This document shows, one piece after another, positions 9,830-62,656 of a DNA stretch of 64,000 bases. The position numbers were made by a program, and so were the translations under genes. The stretch lies in the IMG/VR virus record IMGVR_UViG_3300027759_000043. One strand, written 5' to 3'. Each line of letters begins with the position of its first letter. Position 1 is the first letter of the stretch. The stretch comes from a virus (Duplodnaviria > Caudoviricetes). Below the pieces are notes generated by a model that was given only the letters and a program-made list of their open reading frames with translations, was not told the DNA's origin and made no database searches.

Positions 9830-11608
9830 ATGGCTTCTTGGAAAAAATATTTTAAAGTTGCTGATCTCTCAGGTCAGATGAGTCCTATTTCAGGCGGCAG
9901 AGATAGTGGCCTGCCTGGATATCCCAAAAATGATGGTCGCGGATCAAACCCGGCGCAGACAGATTTTGCGTTTCGTAACTATGCGTCGCGCTTGCCCGAA
10001 GTGTATTCTGGACACCCCAACCGAATTGAACGCTACAATCAATATGAGAACATGGATGCTGACTCTGAAGTCAACGCCTGTTTAGACATCATTGCTGAGT
10101 TTTCCACACAACTCAATGAAGACAACAACACCCCATTTGAAATCAAGTATTCAGATGAACCTACTGATCATGAAATTGAAATTATCCGTAAGCAAATGCA
10201 ACAGTGGGTCAAACTCAACAAACTAGATCAGCGTATCTTCAAACTGTTCCGCAACACCATCAAGTACGGAGATCAAATTTTTGTTCGTGACCCAGAAACA
10301 TTTGAAATGTACTGGGTAGACATGAGTAAACTCAGTAGAGTTATTGTAAACGAGTCAGAAGGCAAGAGACCTGAGCAGTACATTATTCGTGACATCAACC
10401 CCAACTTCCAGAATCTAACAGTGGCTGCAAAGACCACAACAGACTTCATGGTCAACCCGCCCACAGGTGGTGGCTACCAGCAAGGCGGCGGATATACTCA
10501 GCCAAATACTGCTATGACAGGAACCAGTAGATTCAGTCGTGCTGTAAACGAAACCTGTATTGATGCCAAGCACGTGGTGCATATGAGTCTAAACGAAGGT
10601 TTAGACACATTTTGGCCATTTGGCAAAAGCATTTTGGAAAACATTTTCAAAGTATTCAAACAAAAAGAATTACTAGAAGATGCGCTATTAATCTATCGTG
10701 TGCAACGTGCGCCTGAGCGCAGAGTATTTAAAATTGACGTGGGCAACATGCCAAGTCACTTGGCCATGCAGTTTGTAGAGCGTGTAAAAAACGAAATGCA
10801 TCAGCGTAGAATCCCCACATTTGGCGGTGGTGGCGGCAACATCATGGATTCAAGTTATAATCCACTATCAATCAACGAAGACTTCTTCTTTCCCACAGGC
10901 GCAGACGGACGTGGATCAAGTGTAGACGTGTTGCCCGGCGGTCAAAATCTGGGCGAAATTGACGATTTAAAGTATTTTAACAACAAAATGGCTCGTGGTT
11001 TACGTGTACCCAGCAGTTACCTGCCCACTGCCCCTGATGACTCGGAGCGCACAATGCAGGATGGTAAAGTGGGCACAGCACTGATTCAAGAGTATAGATT
11101 CAACCAGTATTGTGAGCGTTTGCAAGCACTTATTATGCAGAAACTGGATGATGAATTCAAGATGTTCCTGCGTTGGAGAGGCTTTAATATTGATGCTGGC
11201 CTGTTCCAACTCAAGTTTAATCCACCACAAAACTTTGCAAGTTATCGTCAAGCCGAGATGGATACGTCACGTATCAGTAGTTTTACTAGCCTAGAACAGT
11301 TGCCTTACATGAGCAAGCGTTTTATGTTAGAGCGTTTCTTGGGATTGAGCAAGGACGAAATTGAACAAAACGAAAAAATGTGGCGTGAAGAACGTGACAA
11401 ACCTGAACTACAAACCACACAAGGACAGGATCTACGCAGTATTGGTATTACTCCAGCAGGCATGGAAACTGATATTGCCACAGGCGAAGAAATGGCCAAT
11501 CTACAAGCACCCGGTGCAGAAGGTGGCTTACCGGCCGCCCCTGCTGGCGGCGTAGGTGGTACATTACCAGGTGCAGGGGCACCAGCGGCAGCGCCAGCAG
11601 GATTATAA
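9830..11608 (+). CDS. gp20: Portal protein (T4 gp20 family)
   Basis: LLEDALLIYRVQRAPERRVFKIDVGNMP, EDFFFP, LPGGQNLGEIDDLKYF. Confidence 0.97.
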   Translation: MASWKKYFKVADLSGQMSPISGGRDSGLPGYPKNDGRGSNPAQTDFAFRNYASRLPEVYSGHPNRIERYNQYENMDADSEVNACLDIIAEFSTQLNEDNNTPFEIKYSDEPTDHEIEIIRKQMQQWVKLNKLDQRIFKLFRNTIKYGDQIFVRDPETFEMYWVDMSKLSRVIVNESEGKRPEQYIIRDINPNFQNLTVAAKTTTDFMVNPPTGGGYQQGGGYTQPNTAMTGTSRFSRAVNETCIDAKHVVHMSLNEGLDTFWPFGKSILENIFKVFKQKELLEDALLIYRVQRAPERRVFKIDVGNMPSHLAMQFVERVKNEMHQRRIPTFGGGGGNIMDSSYNPLSINEDFFFPTGADGRGSSVDVLPGGQNLGEIDDLKYFNNKMARGLRVPSSYLPTAPDDSERTMQDGKVGTALIQEYRFNQYCERLQALIMQKLDDEFKMFLRWRGFNIDAGLFQLKFNPPQNFASYRQAEMDTSRISSFTSLEQLPYMSKRFMLERFLGLSKDEIEQNEKMWREERDKPELQTTQGQDLRSIGITPAGMETDIATGEEMANLQAPGAEGGLPAAPAGGVGGTLPGAGAPAAAPAGL

Positions 11609-12789: not shown

Positions 12790-13437
12790 ATGAGATACCT
12801 ACAAGAGCATTTGAACTTTAATCAGGCCAAGATTCGCGTCTTGGTCGAGGATGCTCCTGACGGCAAAGGCCCATTCAACGGCAAGAACTTGTACATGGAA
12901 GGTATTTGTATTGAAGGCGGAGTAAAAAACGCCAACGAACGTGTGTACCCTGTGAATGAAATTGCCAAGGCTGTGGACACCATTAACAAACAAGTTATGG
13001 AAGGCTACAGCGTGATGGGCGAAGTTGATCACCCAGAAGATCTCAAAATCAACTTGGATCGCGTGAGTCACACCATTGACAAAATGTGGATGGATGGCCC
13101 TTGCGGTTACGGCAAGTTGAGAATTATTCCAACGCCAATGGGACAACTGGTCAAGACCATGTTGGATTCTGGCGTCAAACTCGGAGTTTCGAGCCGTGGT
13201 TCCGGTAACGTGAACGACGGCAACGGACATGTCAGTGACTTTGAAATTGTCACTGTCGATGTTGTTGCTCAACCCAGCGCCCCACATGCTTATCCCAAAG
13301 CCATATATGAAGGACTTCTCAACATGAAGTACGGTCATAGAGTTTTGGAAGTGGCAAGAGACGCAGGCAAGGACAGCAAGGTACAGAGATATTTGCAGAA
13401 CGAGGTAACTCGTTTGATCAAAGATCTCAAAATATAA
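12790..13437 (+). CDS. gp21: Prohead maturation protease (T4 gp21 family)
   Basis: NANERVYP, GEVDHP, GVSSRGSG, DVVAQPSAP. Confidence 0.95.
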   Translation: MRYLQEHLNFNQAKIRVLVEDAPDGKGPFNGKNLYMEGICIEGGVKNANERVYPVNEIAKAVDTINKQVMEGYSVMGEVDHPEDLKINLDRVSHTIDKMWMDGPCGYGKLRIIPTPMGQLVKTMLDSGVKLGVSSRGSGNVNDGNGHVSDFEIVTVDVVAQPSAPHAYPKAIYEGLLNMKYGHRVLEVARDAGKDSKVQRYLQNEVTRLIKDLKI

Positions 13438-14569: not shown

Positions 14570-15781
14570 ATGTCAGAACAATTATTAGAAAGCCGCTGGG
14601 GCGAAACCAAAGAAGCATTGCTTGAAGGTTTGAACGGTTCCAAGCGCAACAGCATGAGTGTTATCCTCGAAAACACTCGCAAGTACTTGAAGGAAAACGC
14701 AAGTTCTGGTTCAACAGGCTCTGGTAACATTGCCACATTGAACCGTGTGATTTTGCCAGTTATCCGTCGTGTAATGCCAACAGTTATTGCTAACGAGTTG
14801 GTCGGCGTTCAGCCAATGACAGGCCCAGTTGGTCAGATCCACACTTTGCGTGTGCGTTATGCCAACAGCATGACTGACAACTCAGCAGCCGCCACAAGCA
14901 CTGCCGCTGGTCAAGAAGCATTGAGCCCATTCTTGATTGCTCAAGCATATTCTTCAGCATCTAGCGTAACTGCTGGTACTGTTGACGCAACACAGAACAT
15001 CTACTCTGGTGCTAATACATCAGTTTTAGAAGGTTCTGGTGGTCGTCAAATTTCCGTGCAAATCTTGAAGCAGGCTGTTGAAGCCAAGACTCGCAAGTTG
15101 CAAGCACGTTGGACATTTGAAGCCGCTCAAGACGCACAAGCAATGCATGGTATCGACGTAGAAGCCGAAATCATGGCTGCTTTGGCTCAAGAGATTACTG
15201 CTGAAATTGACCAAGAGATTCTTTTGAGTCTCCGTAGTTTGGCCGCAACTGAGTACACATACAACCAAGCAACTGTTTCAGGTACTGCTACATTCGTTGG
15301 TGACGAACATGCCGCTTTGGCTGTTTTGATCAATCGTGTTGCTAACTTGATCGCCCAACGCACACGTCGTGGCGCAGGTAACTACGCTGTTGTTAGTTCT
15401 GCAAGTTTGACAGTGTTGCAATCTGCAACTACTTCTGCGTTTGCACGTACTACAGAAGGTACTTTCGAAGCACCCACAAACACCAAGTTTGTTGGTACAT
15501 TGAACGGCGCTATGCGTGTGTTCGTTGACTCTTATGCAAGTGACACTACACCAGTGTTAGTTGGTTACAAGGGTTCTAGCGAAGCAGACGCTCCAGCATT
15601 CTACTGCCCATACATTCCTTTGATGTCAAGTGGTGTTGTGTTGGATCCAACAACCTTTGAACCAGTCGTGTCTTTCATGACACGTTATGGCTTCATCGAG
15701 TTAACCAACACTGCCAGTTCATTCGGCAATGCTGGTGACTATGTTGGTGAGATCGCTGTATCTAACTTGTCATTCTCCTAA
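14570..15781 (+). CDS. gp23: Major capsid protein (T4 gp23 family)
   Basis: VGVQPMTGPVGQIHTLR, AKTRKLQARWTFEAAQD, EITAEIDQEI, FYCPYIPL, MTRYG. Confidence 0.97.
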   Translation: MSEQLLESRWGETKEALLEGLNGSKRNSMSVILENTRKYLKENASSGSTGSGNIATLNRVILPVIRRVMPTVIANELVGVQPMTGPVGQIHTLRVRYANSMTDNSAAATSTAAGQEALSPFLIAQAYSSASSVTAGTVDATQNIYSGANTSVLEGSGGRQISVQILKQAVEAKTRKLQARWTFEAAQDAQAMHGIDVEAEIMAALAQEITAEIDQEILLSLRSLAATEYTYNQATVSGTATFVGDEHAALAVLINRVANLIAQRTRRGAGNYAVVSSASLTVLQSATTSAFARTTEGTFEAPTNTKFVGTLNGAMRVFVDSYASDTTPVLVGYKGSSEADAPAFYCPYIPLMSSGVVLDPTTFEPVVSFMTRYGFIELTNTASSFGNAGDYVGEIAVSNLSFS

Positions 15782-54295: not shown

Positions 54296-56500
54296 ATGAC
54301 ATTTTTTTACGACTTAAACAAACGCATGGCTGAACTGAGCCAAAAACAAACTCTTGCAGAGCATGCAGTATCTGATCCTCAGCCTACTAAGAAGAGTCCA
54401 ATGACACAAGCACTCAATGAAAGCGCAGTTGCTGAAGCCAGTTATAGTGCCAAGGCTGCTCGTGCTGGTAAAGACATTGGTAAGCCAGGCAAGAACTTCA
54501 GTAAGATTGCTGCCGATGCAGGCAAGCGTTATGGTTCAAAAGCCGCAGGCGAGCGTGTGGCAGGTGCAGTATTAAACAAACTGCGTCATCCTAAAGAAGA
54601 TGTTGAAGAAAGTGCATTACAGGCTTACCTTGGCGACAAAAAGTACGGTAAAGAAGGCATGAAGGCATTGCAACAAGCAGGCCGTGAGCATGCTGGCAAA
54701 GAAAAAATGAACCAGATTCGTAATCGCTATGACAAGATGGACGAGGCCGACATGGAAGAAGGTGGCATTCCAATGACAGCCAAGCAAAAATCATTTGCTG
54801 CCTTGGCACCTCCCAAAGACAAGATTACATTTGCCGACAAGATTGCCGGCGCCAAACAAGAAGTTGAAGAAATGTTGGGTGACGTGGCAGCCGAAGCCAT
54901 CAAGAGCGCACTGAGTCCCAAGCAAAAGAAACTTGACCGTAACAACAACGGCAAATTAGATGCACAAGACTTTGAGATGCTACGTCGAGGTGCCAAACAA
55001 GAAACTGACGAAGGCTTTCCAACAGTAGCAGGTGCTCGTGCTGAATTGAACAAACGTAAAGTTGGCGATGTCACACATGGTGACAAGCATGACACACAAG
55101 AGATTCCAGGTGGCCGCAGAGTAACACGCCGTGTTGATCCCAACACAGGGTATTCAGTAGGTGCCGACAGTGACGCACCGGCCGGTGGTGAAAAGCGTGG
55201 ACGTGGCCGTCCCAAGTCCTCAGAAGGTCCACGTCAAGAACGTACCACAGCAAAATCACGCAAGACTGATCGTACTGCATACAGCAAAAAGAAAACCAAC
55301 GAAGATGATCTTGAGATCACTGATCGTGGCGAGTATGATCAAGAAGGCGAAATGGCCAAAGACAGCATCAAGACTGTGGTGCGTCATGCACAAGCCTTGG
55401 AAAAAATCCTGGGCGACAATGACAACTTGCCAGAATGGGTACAATCCAAGTTGGCCAAGATTGAAAGCATGATGACTGCTGTGGATGACTACATGCAGAA
55501 TCAAGAAGGCGACGATGAAATGGCCATGGACGAAGAAAAAACTTCTACTCGTGACAGTCGTGCTGAACGAGCCGGTCGCAAGGTAGCCAAAGACATCGAG
55601 TATGATGAAAAGAAGAAAGACGGTATCCATGGTAAAAAGCGTGGCTCTGAAGATGACCGGGCTGAACGAGCCGGCAAGAAAGTCACTAAAGACATCGAGT
55701 ATGATGAGAAAAAGAAAGAAAAGAAAGTAGATGAAACTACTACCAGTGGATCAGTTGCCACAGGTGGTGACGCTCCCAAGGCCAGCAAAGGTGGCATGCA
55801 AGTTGGCAAGGGCATTTACGACAGTTTAAATCGCCGAGTCGAAGGCATGATTGCGGAATCAATGAGTATCAACGTGAGCATGACCAAAGATGACAACGGT
55901 TCACACAAGAACATCACTGTCACAGCAGCCGATGAAGATGCAGAGGCTTTGGCACAAATGTTGCGCAGTGCTGGTCTAGGCGGTGATATGTCACACGGTC
56001 ATGAAGAGCCTTGCCCAGATTGCGGATCAACTGATTGTGGTTGCGATGAAGCAGTAGAAGAAGCCTATGGCGATACTAATGCTACACAAAATCAACCTGA
56101 TTGGCCTACTGACACTGAATACAGTGACGATGCCCTGCAATACTCAGGTGGCTTGAACAAGCCCAAGACTGACATTGCCGGTGACGGACAAACTACGATT
56201 CCTAATACTGCTGTTCACACTCAAAACGAAGATGAACTGCGCAGATTGCGTGAAATGGCTGGCATCAAGCAACAAGAACTCAAGCCATGGGAACGCACCA
56301 TGAAAGAAGCGGCAGTTGAAGAAGGTGTTGTAGACACAGTCAAAGACGTTGTGAAAAAAGGCATTGATGCGCTTAAAGGTCCTGACGATGACAAGTTGTT
56401 GTCAAAGTTAGAAAAAGAAACTGGTGGCAAGCGTCCTGAAAAGAAGGACGAGAAAATGCAAGAAAGCCTCATGCGAGAGTTTGCTAACTTCCGGATCTAA
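54296..56500 (+). CDS. Large charged modular protein, putative capsid-packaged polyprotein (734 aa)
   Basis: Start after AGAGGA SD; many hydrophobic-x-Glu sites, AT-hook KRGRGRPK, EF-hand-like DRNNNGKLDAQD, internal duplication. Confidence 0.75.
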   Translation: MTFFYDLNKRMAELSQKQTLAEHAVSDPQPTKKSPMTQALNESAVAEASYSAKAARAGKDIGKPGKNFSKIAADAGKRYGSKAAGERVAGAVLNKLRHPKEDVEESALQAYLGDKKYGKEGMKALQQAGREHAGKEKMNQIRNRYDKMDEADMEEGGIPMTAKQKSFAALAPPKDKITFADKIAGAKQEVEEMLGDVAAEAIKSALSPKQKKLDRNNNGKLDAQDFEMLRRGAKQETDEGFPTVAGARAELNKRKVGDVTHGDKHDTQEIPGGRRVTRRVDPNTGYSVGADSDAPAGGEKRGRGRPKSSEGPRQERTTAKSRKTDRTAYSKKKTNEDDLEITDRGEYDQEGEMAKDSIKTVVRHAQALEKILGDNDNLPEWVQSKLAKIESMMTAVDDYMQNQEGDDEMAMDEEKTSTRDSRAERAGRKVAKDIEYDEKKKDGIHGKKRGSEDDRAERAGKKVTKDIEYDEKKKEKKVDETTTSGSVATGGDAPKASKGGMQVGKGIYDSLNRRVEGMIAESMSINVSMTKDDNGSHKNITVTAADEDAEALAQMLRSAGLGGDMSHGHEEPCPDCGSTDCGCDEAVEEAYGDTNATQNQPDWPTDTEYSDDALQYSGGLNKPKTDIAGDGQTTIPNTAVHTQNEDELRRLREMAGIKQQELKPWERTMKEAAVEEGVVDTVKDVVKKGIDALKGPDDDKLLSKLEKETGGKRPEKKDEKMQESLMREFANFRI

Positions 56501-56501
56501 T

Positions 56502-56681
56502 ATGACACAACAGTATCAGACCTATGCAGAAACAATGTCCAGACTGGCGGAGAGACACCCGCCAGCACCAACACCTGCAGAGGTACGCAATCAACCTGCA
56601 ATGATACCCGGCGTGTTAAGTCAGACCACAAATCTGTTCCGCCCAGTGGCAGTGGCAGATCTCAATAAGGAATCGAAATAA
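56502..56681 (+). CDS. Small hypothetical protein (59 aa)
   Basis: ATG 1 nt after the upstream stop; TAATG coupling to the next gene. Confidence 0.65.
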   Translation: MTQQYQTYAETMSRLAERHPPAPTPAEVRNQPAMIPGVLSQTTNLFRPVAVADLNKESK

Positions 56682-57004
56682 TGGCTATTCAAGTTATCAA
56701 TGCAGTATCAAACGTGGCATGGACTACAGACAAGGTAGAAATTGCTACCACAACTGCCAACGTGACTTTTCAAGTTTCGGTTGTACAGTTGACCTATGTA
56801 CAAGCAAACGGTGTTCCGGCTAATGCCACAATGACCACACCCACCGGAAATCTATATGCCAACGTTATAGTGGTCCCTGGCAACACAGTGCAACAATACT
56901 ATGTTGGTGCAGGAAACTATTTGAACATAGTCACAGGCACTGGCTTCTCGGCCACAGCACTAGGCGCAGCCTCATCAGCCACGGCAGGTTCAAACGGCAT
57001 CTAA
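56681..57004 (+). CDS. Small beta-rich putative structural protein
   Basis: 107 aa, T/V/A/N-rich; AAGGA SD. Confidence 0.7.
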   Translation: MAIQVINAVSNVAWTTDKVEIATTTANVTFQVSVVQLTYVQANGVPANATMTTPTGNLYANVIVVPGNTVQQYYVGAGNYLNIVTGTGFSATALGAASSATAGSNGI

Positions 57005-57005
57005 A

Positions 57006-57392
57006 ATGAGAGCCCGTGAGTTCATAACAGAAGGCGCTGGCAAGCGTGGCGGAACAAGAGCCGCTGCCGCGCATGAATTTGAAACTGCACATCCTGGCAT
57101 AGTAGGCCCTGGCGGCAAGGGAGACGTATACTGGGGCCGGTATTATGATCATTATCGTGTGGCAACATTGGCCGGCATGGACCTTGAACAATTGGAAAAC
57201 TCAGGCGATATAAATTTCTTTGGAAACTTGCCTATCTTTAGTGCCTACACTGAACACGATCGCAAGAAACTCACTGCAATTATGAAAAAACTGGGCATGA
57301 AGCCCCGAGATTCTATCAGCAATGGCAGTCATGAACCTGACTACGTAAATCACACAAGCCCAGTTACAGCATTTAAAGGTTATGCGAGATAG
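57006..57392 (+). CDS. MRAREF-family paralogue 1
   Basis: MRAREFITE...SPVTAFKGYAR. Confidence 0.85.
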   Translation: MRAREFITEGAGKRGGTRAAAAHEFETAHPGIVGPGGKGDVYWGRYYDHYRVATLAGMDLEQLENSGDINFFGNLPIFSAYTEHDRKKLTAIMKKLGMKPRDSISNGSHEPDYVNHTSPVTAFKGYAR

Positions 57393-57394
57393 CC

Positions 57395-58273
57395 ATGTGT
57401 GTAATACTTGCCAAGTACTTTGATGGTATTGGATGGGCCGGCGCTAAAAATCGCGATCGCAACTACACCCCTGTGCTAGACTTCATTGAAGACAACAGTC
57501 ACGACGTGCAACGTATGATGATGCATGACCAAGTCACAGGCTACAAAGAAGGCATCAATAATCATGGCATTAGCATACTAAACACCAGTTTGGATGTGTA
57601 TGATGATGAACGTGAAGTTGAAGCCGGCACAGCAGAAATCAGTCCTGACGGGCAAGTGATTGCCAAGGCCCTGTTACAACACACAGTACCCGATGCTGTT
57701 CAAGTGTTATTAGACGGAAAACTAGGCGGTTGTACCATTGTGTTTGACCGGGAACAACTGTATCTAATAGAAGCCAGCGACTGGGATAGCACACGTGAAT
57801 TCAAATCGATTGTGAAAAAGATCCCGAACACAGACACAGTGGCCAGAACCAATCATGGCATCTGGATGCAGGACACAGGATATCAACGCAGGCCCAACAA
57901 CCGGAGTGAAACACTCAGTAGAATTTCAAGTGAATCAAGACTTGCACTGGCCGAAGCAGTGGTGGCCACAGCCGAAGAACCTGAGGATTTGGTAGATGGC
58001 ATGTGTCAAGTGTACTTGAAGAATCCGCAACTAAATATAATGCGGACCAGCACAGAGCAAAAGAAAATGCGCACCACTAGTCAGCAGTTATGTGTTCCAG
58101 AAGAAAAGACACTGTATTGCCGTCCTGTTAGCAGTCATTTGCAATTTGATTTCTGGGGATTGAATCAACCCAACACTGATGTATGGGTAGAGATACTGAG
58201 CAACCGCGCACTGTGGCAGAATACACAAGGTGATCCTCCTTTTGGACACATGAAATTGAAAGACGTCAAATGA
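57395..58273 (+). CDS. Ntn-hydrolase (N-terminal Cys; NRDE/TANGO2 or C45-like)
   Basis: M-C start, AKNRD, EGINNHG, ARTNHG. Confidence 0.75.
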   Translation: MCVILAKYFDGIGWAGAKNRDRNYTPVLDFIEDNSHDVQRMMMHDQVTGYKEGINNHGISILNTSLDVYDDEREVEAGTAEISPDGQVIAKALLQHTVPDAVQVLLDGKLGGCTIVFDREQLYLIEASDWDSTREFKSIVKKIPNTDTVARTNHGIWMQDTGYQRRPNNRSETLSRISSESRLALAEAVVATAEEPEDLVDGMCQVYLKNPQLNIMRTSTEQKKMRTTSQQLCVPEEKTLYCRPVSSHLQFDFWGLNQPNTDVWVEILSNRALWQNTQGDPPFGHMKLKDVK

Positions 58274-58668
58274 GAGCACGAGAGTTTGTAGCAGAAGCAA
58301 GATTTGGATCAGCCCAAGACGTTCCTGCTGACGCAAAGAAATTACCCAAAAGCCACGCTAGTGCCATCAAGGGTGCAGTCAGCATGCCTGATATATCAAT
58401 GACCAAACAAGGTGGTAGTCCCTACACACAATGGCGTTTTAGTCTGGCCATGGCAGGAGCACCAGATTTCCCCACACCAGCCGCTGGCGCATTTGCTGGC
58501 GACCCGCTGTTGGCAACTTACACAGACGTTGAAATGGACATCATTAATGCCGCTGCCAAGAGTGTTGGTGCCGGAAGAGTTAACAAACTAACTGACAATC
58601 GTAGTACAGAAGCAGACTATGTGCAAAAAACAAGTCCAGTAAAAGGATTCCGAGGATATCCCCGATGA
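58270..58668 (+). CDS. MRAREF-family paralogue 2
   Basis: MRAREFVAE...SPVKGFRGYPR. Confidence 0.85.
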   Translation: MRAREFVAEARFGSAQDVPADAKKLPKSHASAIKGAVSMPDISMTKQGGSPYTQWRFSLAMAGAPDFPTPAAGAFAGDPLLATYTDVEMDIINAAAKSVGAGRVNKLTDNRSTEADYVQKTSPVKGFRGYPR

Positions 58669-59036
58669 GAGCCAGAGAATTTCTTAAAGAACACGATGGA
58701 ACCATCAGCGACAATTTCCGTTATGCCACAGTGGGACTGAACACCTTTGGTGATGGCGAGCACATCAGTGGGGATTATACATCATACAGGCTCATGATGG
58801 CCACTGCCATGGCTGACGGCACCAACAAGCCACTGGATCTTGATGCCAAGAGTTGGCACGGCAAAAGAAAAACAGCGCACCCTTACACTCAAGCGGAACA
58901 AAACATGTTGAAACAGGCCTACAAGGCAGTGGGCGCAGAGTGGCAAGATCTAAATCATGGCGACTTGGAGAGCCAAGAACCACCAGGCGGCAATGCCAAA
59001 AGCCCTATCGAACCATTTAAAGGGTATCCCAGATGA
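58665..59036 (+). CDS. MRAREF-family paralogue 3
   Basis: MRAREFLKE...SPIEPFKGYPR. Confidence 0.85.
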   Translation: MRAREFLKEHDGTISDNFRYATVGLNTFGDGEHISGDYTSYRLMMATAMADGTNKPLDLDAKSWHGKRKTAHPYTQAEQNMLKQAYKAVGAEWQDLNHGDLESQEPPGGNAKSPIEPFKGYPR

Positions 59037-59419
59037 GAGCACGAGAGTTTATTACAGAAGATCAAAATTTACCTCCTGAGCAAGCAGATCCCATGAGTCA
59101 TGTGTTTGTGTTGCCCGGAGTTAGATCTTCAGATCCTTACCAAATATACCGACTGGGTGTGGCCATGGCCCGAGCCCGTAGCGATGCTGGCACACAAGAT
59201 CCAATACCCTACATGCCTACCTGGAGTGCGCAAGCGGCATTTGGTGAAGAAGCAGTGATTGCTGGATTCAATGGTAATGTAGCGCCGGTGATTGATCAGG
59301 CATTGAAAATGGCTGGACTGCCAGGTGGCAAAGTACAAGTCAGTACACCAAACAGCATTGAGCCTGCCTCTGTAGACACACAAAGTCCTGTAAAAGGATT
59401 CAAAGGCTACCCAAGGTAA
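59033..59419 (+). CDS. MRAREF-family paralogue 4
   Basis: MRAREFITE...SPVKGFKGYPR. Confidence 0.85.
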   Translation: MRAREFITEDQNLPPEQADPMSHVFVLPGVRSSDPYQIYRLGVAMARARSDAGTQDPIPYMPTWSAQAAFGEEAVIAGFNGNVAPVIDQALKMAGLPGGKVQVSTPNSIEPASVDTQSPVKGFKGYPR

Positions 59420-59451: not shown

Positions 59452-60267
59452 ATGAAACAACTCATTGCCTTGTTGGCATTGGCGGTATCCTTATCGGCTC
59501 ATGCCTGGGACCAACGAGCCCCTAATCCTGTACAAGCCTGTCAAGCGCACTCACCTTATGGATTTGCTACAGTCAAACGTGCTGTGCAACCCATCTGCCG
59601 TGAAGCATATCTAGTGGCATATGATGCTCCTGTAAAGATTCCTGCTTATGTGGCCTACACATTGCTACCGCAAAACGCATTGGGTTGCTTTCCCCGCACC
59701 AATGCTTTTGTTGCTGATCAAAGCGTCCAGGGCGGTGCTAGACCAGATGATTATGCTGGCACAGGCTATGACAAAGGACATGCCGCTCCTGATGGCGATT
59801 TATCTTGGTCAGCACAAGTGGAATACGAATCATTCCTTATGACCAATATGTATCCACAACACGGTAGTTTAAATCGTGGCATTTGGAAACTGTTGGAAAC
59901 AAGTGTGCGTGGTTGGGCAGTACAACTCAATCAACCCTACACAATTTATGTGGGTGCGTTCTACGGACCCGGTGATGAGTCAATTGGCAACGGCGTCGTT
60001 GTGCCACACGGCTTTTACAAAATTGTAATCAACAATCAAACCAAACAAATTGCTGGTTGGGCATTCCCACATACCAAACCCTATGTTAATTTAGGCAATG
60101 ACTTGACCAAGTTCCGACTGCCAGTCAGCCAAATTGAAATCACAGCAGGTGTTAAATTTGCTTACCCAGCAGGTGCTCGAGAACTACAGCCCGGACAAGA
60201 ATGGCCTGTGGACTACGGGTCTCTCACCAACGCTAAACGTGCTCGGTGTGGTCGGAATGCAGAATAA
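59452..60267 (+). CDS. DNA/RNA non-specific endonuclease (NucA/EndoG family) with signal peptide
   Basis: GYDKGH, SFLMTNMYPQ, LNRGIWKLLE; N-terminal MKQLIALLALAVSLSAHA. Confidence 0.92.
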   Translation: MKQLIALLALAVSLSAHAWDQRAPNPVQACQAHSPYGFATVKRAVQPICREAYLVAYDAPVKIPAYVAYTLLPQNALGCFPRTNAFVADQSVQGGARPDDYAGTGYDKGHAAPDGDLSWSAQVEYESFLMTNMYPQHGSLNRGIWKLLETSVRGWAVQLNQPYTIYVGAFYGPGDESIGNGVVVPHGFYKIVINNQTKQIAGWAFPHTKPYVNLGNDLTKFRLPVSQIEITAGVKFAYPAGARELQPGQEWPVDYGSLTNAKRARCGRNAE

Positions 60268-60342: not shown

Positions 60343-61077
60343 ATGCAACATTGCTATCATAACTATTCTGCTTATGCCAATCTATTATTGAATTGGGTAG
60401 GAACTGACCAACAACATAATCTTAGAGCAAAACTAGACCCGTCGTTTAGACCTACCTGGCTAGAATCTGGTTGGGCAGACGATAATGTGATCGAATATCA
60501 ATTCAACAGTGGTGGTTTTAGAACAGACGAGTTTGATCAATCCAAAAGAATCTTGATCTTAGGCTCAAGCCCCACAGTTGGTGTAGGGCTACATCGATCA
60601 CAAACATGGTCTGAATTGTTGAGTAAAAAAATCAATCAACCTGTTTGGAATTTGGCCACTGGTACAGGCTGTTCTGATACTATGTATAGGGTATGTAAAA
60701 ATTATATTTCGCAACTGAACATAAGCATGGTCATTGAACTTGGCGGAGAGAAAGATGCTTTTGAGATATACTTTCAAAATCATTGGCAAATAATCAACAG
60801 TCCTGAATATGATGCTATCTCGTCATTGAAAAGTTTGGTACATTCATGGTATTCAGACACGGAAAATTTAAAAATAAATCAAGAAAAAAATACCGCCGCT
60901 ATGAAATGGATTTGTCATGAAAATCAAGTGCCTTATTATAAATTTTCTTTAAGTGAAATACAAATGAAGTACTATGACATGATAGGTCAATCTGACTGCT
61001 CTCGATGTGGTCATCATGCAGGCCCAAAATTTCACACGGCGGCTGCAGATTATATTGCCGATCATATAATTTTGTAA
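60343..61077 (+). CDS. SGNH-hydrolase-like hypothetical protein
   Basis: ILILGSSPTVGVG, WNLATGTG, C-terminal HHAGP; AT-rich. Confidence 0.55.
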   Translation: MQHCYHNYSAYANLLLNWVGTDQQHNLRAKLDPSFRPTWLESGWADDNVIEYQFNSGGFRTDEFDQSKRILILGSSPTVGVGLHRSQTWSELLSKKINQPVWNLATGTGCSDTMYRVCKNYISQLNISMVIELGGEKDAFEIYFQNHWQIINSPEYDAISSLKSLVHSWYSDTENLKINQEKNTAAMKWICHENQVPYYKFSLSEIQMKYYDMIGQSDCSRCGHHAGPKFHTAAADYIADHIIL

Positions 61078-61084
61078 ATACTAG

Positions 61085-62656
61085 ATGACCAAAACACTAG
61101 AAGGCGTACTGGTCAAAGCACCATACCGACGCCAAACGTTCTCTGATGATCAACTGCAGGAGTTTCTTGCCTGTGCCGATCCTCAAGACGGTCCTCACTA
61201 CTTTTTAGATCACTTCTTTTACATACAGCACCCCACACAGGGCAAGATGTTGTATCATCCGTTTTCTTATCAAAAGCGACTGATCGACACTTACCACAAC
61301 AACCGCTATAGCATAAGCATGATGCCGCGACAAACCGGCAAGTCCACATCAGCGGCTGGCTACATTCTCTGGTACGCCATGTTTGTGCCTGATTCCACTA
61401 TCCTTATTGCCGCACACAAGTACACAGGTGCCCAAGAGATCATGCAACGTATTCGCTTTGCTTATGAACTGTGCCCAGATCATATTCGAGCAGGTGTCAC
61501 CAGTTACAACAAAGGCTCCATAGACTTTGAAAACGGATCAAGAATTGTGTCAGCCACAACAACCGAAACAACTGGTCGTGGTATGAGTATTACTTTGCTG
61601 TACGCTGACGAGTTTGCGTTTGTGCGGCCCACTATTGCTACTGAGTTTTGGACCAGTATCTCCCCTACACTGGCCACAGGTGGTAAGGCCATTATCACAA
61701 GTACCCCCAACTCAGACGAAGATCAGTTTGCACTAATCTGGAAAGGTGCCAACAAGTGCATAGACGAGTTTGGCAACCCAACTGAACTGGGCATGAATGG
61801 ATTCCGAGCATTTAGAAGTTACTGGCAAGAGCACCCGGACCGTGACGAAGCCTGGGGTGAGAACATGCGGGCACAACTGGGTGATGATCGTTTCCGTCGA
61901 GAGATTGGTTGTGAGTTCATTATCAATGATGAAACACTTATTGCCCCGGCCAAGTTACTAGATTTAGAAAGTCGTGATCCTTGGAAACGTACAGGACATG
62001 TGCGTTGGTACGAAGCAATCAAACCCGACAGCATTTATGTTGTGGCACTAGACCCGTCATTAGGCACCGGAGGTGACCCTGCGGCCATACAGATATTTGA
62101 AGCCAACACCACACGTCAAGTGGGCGAGTGGACACACAACCGCACACCCATTCCAGAACAGATACGCATACTGTCGGACATCTGTAAGTACATCAACGAA
62201 ACTGTGCAAAACGACAAGAACATCTACTACAGCATCGAAAACAACACCATTGGCGAAGCAGGCTTGATCTCTATTGCAGAATTTGGTGAAGAAAACATAC
62301 AGGGTTACTTTTTGTCAGATCCACACATGAGCGGTAGTAACAGACGTATGCGCAAGGGCTTTAATACCACGCACAAAAGCAAACTGAGTGCCTGTGCCAA
62401 AGTTAAAAATCTAATAGAAACCAATAGAATGACTGTACACAGTGCGGCCTTGATAAGTGAACTCAAGACCTTTGTGGCTTCGGGCTTGAGTTTTGCCGCA
62501 AAAATAGGCGAAACAGATGACCTTGTGATGAGCATGCTATTAGCGGTGCGTATGATGCAGGTTTTACAGAGTTTTTATACAGAACTAGACAGTCAAATGA
62601 AGGATCACATGGACAACATAATTGAACCCATGCCTTTTATCTCTGTGATGCACTAA
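61085..62656 (+). CDS. gp17: Terminase large subunit (T4 gp17 family)
   Basis: PRQTGKS Walker A, LLYADEFAF Walker B, ITSTPN, ALDPSLG, DDLVMS. Confidence 0.97.
   Translation: MTKTLEGVLVKAPYRRQTFSDDQLQEFLACADPQDGPHYFLDHFFYIQHPTQGKMLYHPFSYQKRLIDTYHNNRYSISMMPRQTGKSTSAAGYILWYAMFVPDSTILIAAHKYTGAQEIMQRIRFAYELCPDHIRAGVTSYNKGSIDFENGSRIVSATTTETTGRGMSITLLYADEFAFVRPTIATEFWTSISPTLATGGKAIITSTPNSDEDQFALIWKGANKCIDEFGNPTELGMNGFRAFRSYWQEHPDRDEAWGENMRAQLGDDRFRREIGCEFIINDETLIAPAKLLDLESRDPWKRTGHVRWYEAIKPDSIYVVALDPSLGTGGDPAAIQIFEANTTRQVGEWTHNRTPIPEQIRILSDICKYINETVQNDKNIYYSIENNTIGEAGLISIAEFGEENIQGYFLSDPHMSGSNRRMRKGFNTTHKSKLSACAKVKNLIETNRMTVHSAALISELKTFVASGLSFAAKIGETDDLVMSMLLAVRMMQVLQSFYTELDSQMKDHMDNIIEPMPFISVMH

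Follow-up and report, generated by a model that had tools for sequence, protein, structure and literature searches.

A family of leader-bearing paralogs in uncultured freshwater jumbo phages: candidate capsid cargo with a T4-like leader

A 64-kb stretch of an uncultured tailed-phage genome (IMG/VR record IMGVR_UViG_3300027759_000043), here called the window, carries an array of four short paralogous genes, copies 1 to 4, with a gene for a predicted N-terminal nucleophile (Ntn) hydrolase between copies 1 and 2. All coordinates refer to the whole window, and all genes of the array lie on the plus strand (Table 1). We find that the four genes are paralogs of long standing, each conserved in its own right, and that they belong to a large unnamed family of ~125-amino-acid (aa) proteins of uncultured freshwater jumbo phages of the T4 superfamily. 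Each copy begins with the same class of nonapeptide leader, which also heads many unrelated proteins. Because this leader is much like the tag with which T4 loads proteins into its head, the paralogs are probably head-packaged. The explanation that we prefer, held with about even confidence, is that they are capsid cargo resembling the T4 internal proteins (IPs), with a leader that would be removed by the prohead protease.

According to this model, the first nine residues, M-R-A-x-E-F-[ILV]-x-E, would act as a portable address at the N-terminus, the counterpart of the T4 capsid-targeting signal (CTS), and would direct the protein to the prohead's scaffolding core. Next, the gp21-type S77 protease of the phage, whose gene lies 44 kb upstream, would remove this address by cleaving behind the Glu of its [ILV]-x-E motif. 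What is left of the protein would stay in the head with the DNA and would probably enter the cell with it. We infer packaging, proteolytic removal of the leader and ejection, as well as any part played in the host, from the gene-level evidence below.

Results

Architecture of the array

A preliminary description of this DNA had reported four paralogs with MRAREF..E starts and SP..F.GY.R ends, ATGA chaining of the hydrolase and copies 2–4, and a Cys-nucleophile Ntn hydrolase between copies 1 and 2. The open reading frame (ORF) listing and a MAFFT alignment bore out the first point. The coordinates agreed with the second, showing 4-nucleotide ATGA overlaps at the hydrolase/copy 2, copy 2/copy 3 and copy 3/copy 4 junctions and a gap of 2 nucleotides between copy 1 and the hydrolase. 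The third was matched by the M-C start of the intervening ORF and by Foldseek searches with its AlphaFold2 model (see below). In the MAFFT alignment, copies 2–4 are 32–34% identical to copy 1. Residues invariant in all four are M1, R2, A3, R4, E5, F6, E9, Y47, R51 and A56 in the N-terminal half and K94, G97, S108, E110, S118, P119, F123, G125, Y126 and R128 in the C-terminal half. A DNA pattern for M-R-A-x-E-F-[LIV]-x-E matched four times in the 64 kb, exactly at the four paralog starts, where shuffled sequences gave an expectation of 0. Gene order was identical in independent assemblies (L011, L014 and others).

The leader is carried by many unrelated proteins

A scan of IMG/VR with the leader DNA pattern returned at least 120 loci; the ORF counts that follow are among the matches listed. 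At least 158 ORFs start with the leader, 88 of them belonging to the family and 70 not. When the leader was stripped from the 68 non-family ORFs of at least 60 aa, the remaining sequences fell into at least 23 unrelated clusters. Pfam matches among these clusters include Phage_lysozyme2 with LysM, GH19, ParB_N with DUF6886, and DUF6267, together with a Kinase-PolyVal match below threshold; GNAT-like and zincin-like (HExxH) motifs were read by eye. This domain repertoire overlaps that of the 'polyvalent proteins' that are co-delivered with phage DNA (PMC5512222). In the complete genome G002 (352,754 bp), M-[KR]-[AS]-x-E-F-[ILV]-x-E stands at the head of seven ORFs, two of the family and five others, and a looser leader motif occurred only twice at internal positions in 177,000 residues of six-frame ORFs. 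Complete leader-bearing jumbo genomes encode S77. The 90-kb leader-rich contigs are only 25–27% complete and thus may be fragments of similar genomes.

One such contig, L127 (IMGVR_UViG_3300045918_000131; 94 kb, 27% complete), carries at least eight consecutive leader-bearing genes in a 7.4-kb locus. The starts in this run are the leader itself or close variants of it (MRA.EF.., MKISEIINE, MLLNEMF..), and the bodies are mostly unrelated and unannotated.

Resemblance to the T4 capsid-targeting signal

The T4 CTS, MKTYQEFIAE, undergoes a single cut by the head protease and is enough on its own for the loading of foreign proteins (PMC8442874; PMC3012670). We located this sequence on IPII and IPIII in NC_000866. 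When the family profile was aligned with IPII and IPIII using hhalign, only REFITE and QEFIAE were paired, at the same distance from Met1. The probabilities were 0.9% and 15.5%, and the aligned columns were confined to the leader region. Since the leader alone is aligned, it resembles the T4 CTS, and the bodies of the proteins are unrelated.

The window also encodes a T4-type head module in cis, comprising a gp20-type portal, the S77 protease and a gp23-type major capsid protein (Table 1), and S77 is likewise encoded by the complete relatives G001 and G002 and by the Pseudomonas jumbo phage PA5oct. An L-K-E in the window's capsid protein, just before the Gp23 domain, fits a conserved [LIV]-x-E specificity of the protease; its position is the one at which T4 gp23 is cut after L-T-E. 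In addition, the array keeps its position among the late structural genes, upstream of the large terminase (TerL) gene, which we count in favor of capsid cargo. The T4-type capsid-targeting leader that had been proposed in the preliminary description thus stands as a resemblance, supported indirectly by its [ILV]-x-E end, the hhalign result, the S77, gp20 and gp23 genes of the window, and its portability.

A large family without a Pfam, PHROG or fold match

A profile built from the four copies collected 4,870 clusters at 90% identity and 497 representatives at 50% identity, some of them on contigs of 340–350 kb. Among 94 diverse members, E110 and S118 are invariant and M1, E5, E9, Y36, R40, S108 and P119 nearly so. 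The C-terminus comes in two flavors, S-P-V-x-x-F-K-G-Y-[PKG]-[RK] and S-P-V-A-K-x-K-K-N-K-Y-G-V. Pfam and PHROGs gave no match to the four paralogs at E-values up to 0.1, and the family profile gave chance-level matches only against PDB chain sequences. In profile searches, PA5oct, MA9V-1, HTVC008M and S-8S53 proved to lack the family, and blastn of the array region against cultured phages found no match.

An AlphaFold2 model of copy 4, made with the family alignment, reached a predicted local distance difference test score (pLDDT) of 89 and a predicted template modeling (TM) score of 0.61, and contains only two helices. Foldseek comparison of this model with the PDB, AFDB clusters and the ESM Atlas returned nothing below an E-value of 1 or above a TM-score of 0.35, and a feature search of the ESM Atlas for the family also returned nothing. 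With thousands of members, a confidently modeled but matchless fold and no Pfam or PHROG model to annotate it, the family warrants a definition of its own.

In about one-fifth of the 150 top-ranking representatives, the family body forms the C-terminal part of a long protein. Among 20 such fusions that were scanned, nine have a cytidylyltransferase-like N-terminal domain, one a zeta-toxin/AAA_33 kinase and two DUF3008. Most fusion proteins begin with a leader-like M-K-L-R-E-L-F-E, and the order of their parts is a leader-like N-terminus, an enzyme, and then the family body without a leader of its own. In other phages, the part joined C-terminally to cytidylyltransferase-like and kinase domains is of the copy-3 type. 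On short contigs that encode fusions, unrelated neighboring genes begin with the same kind of peptide. These fusions hint that the body serves in targeting or partner binding rather than as an enzyme.

A trio consisting of DUF6267 (ligase-like, K-x-D-G), a P-loop kinase and a cytidylyltransferase-like enzyme recurs in cultured marine T4-like phages and, with leaders on its members, on the metagenomic contigs (L149, which is Pelagibacter phage HTVC008M gp127–gp130; L005; L006). Fusions that join the family body to the cytidylyltransferase or the kinase recur as well.

The four copies are old and separately maintained

In a maximum-likelihood tree of 51 members from 18 loci, the four copies correspond to four well-supported orthologous clades (support 100/99 for copy 1 and 100/98 for copy 2). 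Pairwise ratios of nonsynonymous to synonymous substitution rates (dN/dS) between the window and its orthologues were 0.07–0.14 for all copies, including comparisons at an unsaturated dS of 0.5–0.7. By gene, the values were 0.07–0.13 for copy 1, 0.09–0.14 for copy 2 and 0.07–0.09 for the hydrolase. With clades this old and separate, and with dN/dS among orthologues as low as that of the hydrolase, the diversifying selection envisaged earlier for these genes is unsupported.

Weighing capsid cargo against other roles for the leader and the family

A number of observations weigh against capsid cargo. Strong purifying selection acts on the four paralogs, unlike what is seen at the hypervariable IP loci of T-even phages. 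The predicted isoelectric points of the mature paralogs are 5.2, 5.9, 8.9 and 9.5, whereas T4 IPs are uniformly basic. When 50,697 cultured phage records were searched by tblastn with copies 3 and 4, no genuine match emerged, and the leader DNA pattern was not found in PA5oct, MA9V-1 or HTVC008M. Three further points of this kind concern codon usage in the leader, some of the proteins that bear it and the long runs of leader genes. These points would favor an alternative in which the leader is another kind of N-terminal signal, such as a translation-initiation context, a turnover tag or a docking site for a chaperone or hub, and the family is cytoplasmic, perhaps acting with the cytidylyltransferase, kinase and DUF6267 set.

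The first point is an RNA-level bias at codon 2. Arg2 is encoded by AGA in 38 of 49 family genes (78%), compared with 15% of Arg codons in the phage's other genes (in the window, codon 2 lies at 57009-57011, 58273-58275, 58668-58670 and 59036-59038). The ATGA overlaps force an A at that base and explain only part of the bias; copy 1, which has no overlap, still uses AGA. Secondly, two GH19-type lysozyme-like proteins (L033:2992-3609, plus strand; a 211-aa ORF on the minus strand of L081; GH19 by Pfam for L033 only) carry the leader and, directly behind it, a twin-arginine translocation (Tat)-like signal composed of RRGFL, a hydrophobic stretch and then A-x-A. Export out of the cell that makes them would account for such proteins no less well than loading into the capsid. 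Thirdly, long runs of leader genes lie beside a long ORF taken for a polymerase by eye only (L127, L035), and as cargo these runs would mean an unusually large set. The N-termini of the same enzyme trio in cultured HTVC008M, which are only loosely similar, also suit a signal of another kind. Against it, leader codons 3, 5, 6 and 9 show synonymous variation at background frequencies, and such free variation everywhere except codon 2 argues that the constraint is on the peptide. Moreover, the leader ends in the T4-type protease motif [ILV]-x-E and closely resembles the experimentally defined T4 CTS, the complete genomes that carry it encode S77, and the proteins that bear it overlap in type with injected polyvalent-protein domains. 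We regard a different N-terminal signal as unlikely, although it is the best placed of the alternatives.

The paralogs could also be accessory proteins of the prohead core or scaffold, like T4 gp67/gp68, which the leader would bring into the prohead and which would be degraded or expelled at maturation and never delivered. A fixed place among structural genes, a pair conserved in all relatives and strong purifying selection suit assembly factors better than arms-race effectors, and a Ser-x-Glu at residues 108–110 is conserved in the family (E110 invariant, S108 nearly so). However, a scaffold-like ORF and a separate acidic core-like ORF are already present in the gp20–gp23 module of the window. 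Fusion of the family body to cytidylyltransferase-like and kinase enzymes elsewhere would be odd for a scaffold, and the compact model of high confidence (pLDDT 89) is unlike typical extended scaffolds. We therefore consider a scaffold role improbable and retain capsid cargo as the preferred explanation.

The hydrolase belongs to an accessory cassette

The 292-aa ORF between copies 1 and 2 is predicted to be a Cys-nucleophile Ntn-fold hydrolase. PF03417 (AAT) matched it below the gathering cut-off (E-value 0.0085; 16.2 versus 23.2 bits). Its AlphaFold2 model (pLDDT 69) is good for residues 1–200 and poor for the last ~80 residues. Foldseek gave a probability of 1.0 to 6dy3, 2x1e, 6ufy, 5j9r and secernins, with TM-scores of 0.35–0.5. 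The fold matches comprise NAAA, isopenicillin-N acyltransferase (IAT), penicillin V acylase/bile salt hydrolase (PVA/BSH), C69 dipeptidase, secernins and TANGO2. Structural alignments begin at Cys2, which stands opposite Cys103 of IAT and Cys126 of NAAA, and the M-C start is nearly invariant in 16 hydrolase homologues. There are ~1000 metagenome homologues, and a few of the close ones have a precomputed PF03417 match. A predicted complex of the hydrolase with copy 2 scored 0.01 with the partner folded poorly, and was not used either way.

At 14 loci with hydrolase homologues (63–99% identity), a gene of the copy-1 type lies directly upstream in every case, and one of the copy-2 type directly downstream wherever that flank is present; the loci collected with the leader pattern add three more cases. 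The hydrolase occurs in only three of 54 sampled family loci, again embedded in the array; the commonest array has two copies. L001 and L002, two relatives, carry only members of the copy-3 and copy-4 types, and in the complete genomes G001 and G002 we found two family copies, no hydrolase and neither the copy-1 nor the copy-2 type. The core pair, copies 3 and 4, occurs in all relatives. The remaining genes, namely copies 1 and 2 with the hydrolase between them, are either all present or all absent, and thus constitute a three-gene accessory cassette of one sub-lineage.

The only cultured homologues of the hydrolase are those of the Chryseobacterium jumbo phages MA9V-1 and MA9V-2 (34% identity). 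In MA9V-1 (OR050627.1; L021, L172-L182), the homologue MA9V1_182 has a 12-residue propeptide that ends in E-F-L-N-E directly before the catalytic Cys. This phage encodes S77 inside a 1,349-aa frame, and about nine of its ORFs begin with M-[KR]-x-F-F-[IV]-N-E (then Ala) or a close variant; the leader motif had 12 N-terminal matches where 4 were expected. These features suggest that the hydrolase homologue may be capsid cargo in MA9V-1, its nucleophile perhaps being uncovered by the head protease. As autoproteolysis is the normal route of maturation for Ntn hydrolases, the prohead protease need have no part in processing the propeptide. The MA9V-1 paper used sodium dodecyl sulfate–polyacrylamide gel electrophoresis only, without mass spectrometry. 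If the suggestion is true, a head protease would both load and activate an Ntn hydrolase, in a phage that is cultured.

In the window the hydrolase has no leader (M-C start), and it might be carried into the head through binding to copy 1, copy 2 or both, which bear the leader. The strict family–hydrolase–family order, the presence or absence of the cassette as a block, and the leader-like propeptide ending in L-N-E before the Cys in MA9V-1, which has S77 and a leader of its own on about nine other ORFs, would all be in keeping with such an adaptor. However, all hydrolase loci belong to one phage lineage, so their linkage may reflect a single insertion, and the usual autoproteolytic maturation of Ntn hydrolases also speaks against it. 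We judge this route to be highly improbable.

The least probable account is the enzyme and substrate array put forward in the preliminary description, in which the hydrolase would trim, amidate or acylate the S-P-x-x-F-K-G-Y-P-R tail of the four paralogs: its linkage part holds within this lineage, where the enzyme is embedded between copy-1 and copy-2 types and translationally coupled in every hydrolase locus sampled and those types are absent from complete genomes lacking it, but the enzyme is missing from most sampled family loci and from G001 and G002, the tail is conserved family-wide across hundreds of hydrolase-less lineages and kept by copies 3 and 4 without the enzyme, and hence cannot exist to serve it, and its nearest neighbors in structure work on small acyl-amides or dipeptides rather than on protein tails. 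That the linkage may stem from one insertion counts against this account as well. Capsid cargo remains our explanation for the leader-bearing copies.

Genomic setting

The window is the structural-gene region of a large T4-superfamily myovirus of ~350 kb from lake metagenomes. Homologous contigs measure 340–353 kb, two of them 99–100% complete by CheckV, and the locus is present in freshwater and lake metagenomes of several studies; the RNA runs contained only 7–12% of the sampled words. Genes for the sheath, the tube, head closure and the large terminase lie around the array. Between this TerL and that of PA5oct, the nearest cultured relative, identity is 52%, and a TerL-like neighbor is found in 22 of the 54 sampled family loci. 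The T4 late-promoter motif TATAAATA was not enriched in the window, and none lies near the array.

Table 1. Features of the window discussed in the text
Feature	Position	Strand	Remarks
T4-type portal (gp20)	9830..11608	+	PF07230, E 1.1e-102
T4 gp21-type prohead core serine protease (S77)	12790..13437	+	PF03420, E 1.8e-24, 86.8 bits; presumed leader remover
gp23-type major capsid protein	14570..15781	+	PF07068, E 1.1e-97; N-terminal propeptide with L-K-E at residues 40-42
107-aa protein	56681..57004	+	no family match; M-A-I-Q-V-I-N-A start; conserved upstream neighbor of the array
Paralog copy 1	57006..57392	+	128 aa; always directly 5' of the hydrolase
Leader codons of copy 1 (M-R-A-R-E-F-I-T-E)	57006..57032	+	same nonapeptide class begins at 58270, 58665 and 59033
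Predicted Cys-nucleophile Ntn-fold hydrolase	57395..58273	+	292 aa, M-C start; lineage-specific accessory gene inside the array
Paralog copy 2	58270..58668	+	132 aa; always directly 3' of the hydrolase, ATGA overlap
Paralog copy 3	58665..59036	+	123 aa; core type, kept in hydrolase-less relatives
Paralog copy 4	59033..59419	+	128 aa; core type, kept in hydrolase-less relatives
Large terminase	61085..62656	+	phrog_36964, E 3.8e-115; array upstream in the late structural block

Several neighbors of the array are conserved. A homologue of the 107-aa protein adjoins the family in L001, L002 and L009 and occurs in 19 of the 54 sampled family loci; in relatives its gene is always directly upstream of the first paralog. 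A 59-aa ORF (56503-56682) abuts the 107-aa gene. Further upstream, 54296-56500 (plus strand) encodes a highly charged low-complexity protein of ~734 aa with a Cys cluster (C-P-D-C..C-G-C) and a duplicated basic unit. Judging from orthologues, its true start is probably M-T-F-F-Y, at residue 31 of a 764-aa ORF. It is conserved upstream of the array in 20 of the 54 family loci, and comparison with its positional counterpart in PA5oct, the virion protein gp281, showed no significant similarity.

Between the array and the terminase gene, 59452-60267 (plus strand) encodes a non-specific nuclease of the Endonuclease_NS type (PF01223, E-value 2e-37) with a signal-peptide-like N-terminus. Its place is kept in relatives, and L002 has a staphylococcal-nuclease-type gene there instead. 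Just upstream of TerL, 60343-61077 (plus strand) encodes a 244-aa protein without an assigned function. L002 carries two tandem paralogs of this protein (257 and 247 aa; L002:12266-13798) beside a radical-SAM/SPASM gene.

Discussion

If the leader is a capsid-targeting signal, the injected proteins of uncultured jumbo phages could be listed from sequence alone, and injected proteins are prime candidates for anti-defense and host-takeover functions. The CTS mechanism, established by experiment in T-even phages, would then extend to a distant and environmentally widespread branch of the T4 superfamily.

A broader proposal, which we find rather doubtful when all its parts are taken together, is that M-[KR]-A-x-E-F-[ILV]-x-E is a readable 'cargo code' of the uncultured freshwater jumbo clade that marks every loaded and injected protein. 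The marked set would consist of ParB-like nucleases, GNATs, kinases, lysozymes, ligase-like enzymes and others, and the ~125-aa family would be the universal and most abundant cargo, with a predicted new fold. The C-terminal tail would be a second signal, for docking either on DNA or on the inside of the capsid. Cargo would also be switched on by the prohead protease in some phages, such that the L-N-E cut before the Cys of the MA9V-1 homologue would create its nucleophile only inside the capsid.

Comparison with known systems

The hydrolase is like the Cys-Ntn hydrolases (NAAA/acid ceramidase, IAT of the AAT/C45 group, PVA/BSH, secernin/C69 and TANGO2) in its predicted four-layer alpha-beta-beta-alpha fold and in a Cys, right after the initiator Met, that aligns with the catalytic N-terminal Cys. 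It differs from them in having 8–16% identity and an AAT score below threshold, and in being set in a phage structural operon.

Head-internal proteins of phiKZ-like and SPN3US-like phages are cleaved at S/A/G-x-E. Like the inner-body and ejection proteins of these phages, the present proteins are paralogous sets in jumbo phages with a gp21-related protease that would cut after Glu. Unlike them, they belong to a T4-like lineage, have a hydrophobic residue two positions before the Glu and share no similarity of sequence or fold. ParB-like, kinase-PolyVal and lysozyme domains among the leader proteins recall T4 Alt and the polyvalent proteins (Iyer, Burroughs and Aravind, 2017), but the leader-bearing domains mostly occur one to a small protein, every such protein having a leader to itself, instead of being joined in a single giant polypeptide.

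The closest parallel lies with the CTS-bearing internal head proteins of T4. The window's paralogs depart from these in having non-homologous bodies, with no relationship to those of IPI, IPII or IPIII, in not being uniformly basic or drawn from hypervariable loci, in their extra conserved C-terminal tail and in their enzyme fusions elsewhere. What they have in common with the T4 proteins is a CTS-like leader of about 10 residues that ends in [IL]-x-E and is carried by unrelated bodies, the small size and tandem encoding of the proteins, and a gp20/gp21/gp23 head module, with S77 and a gp23-type capsid protein, in the same phage.

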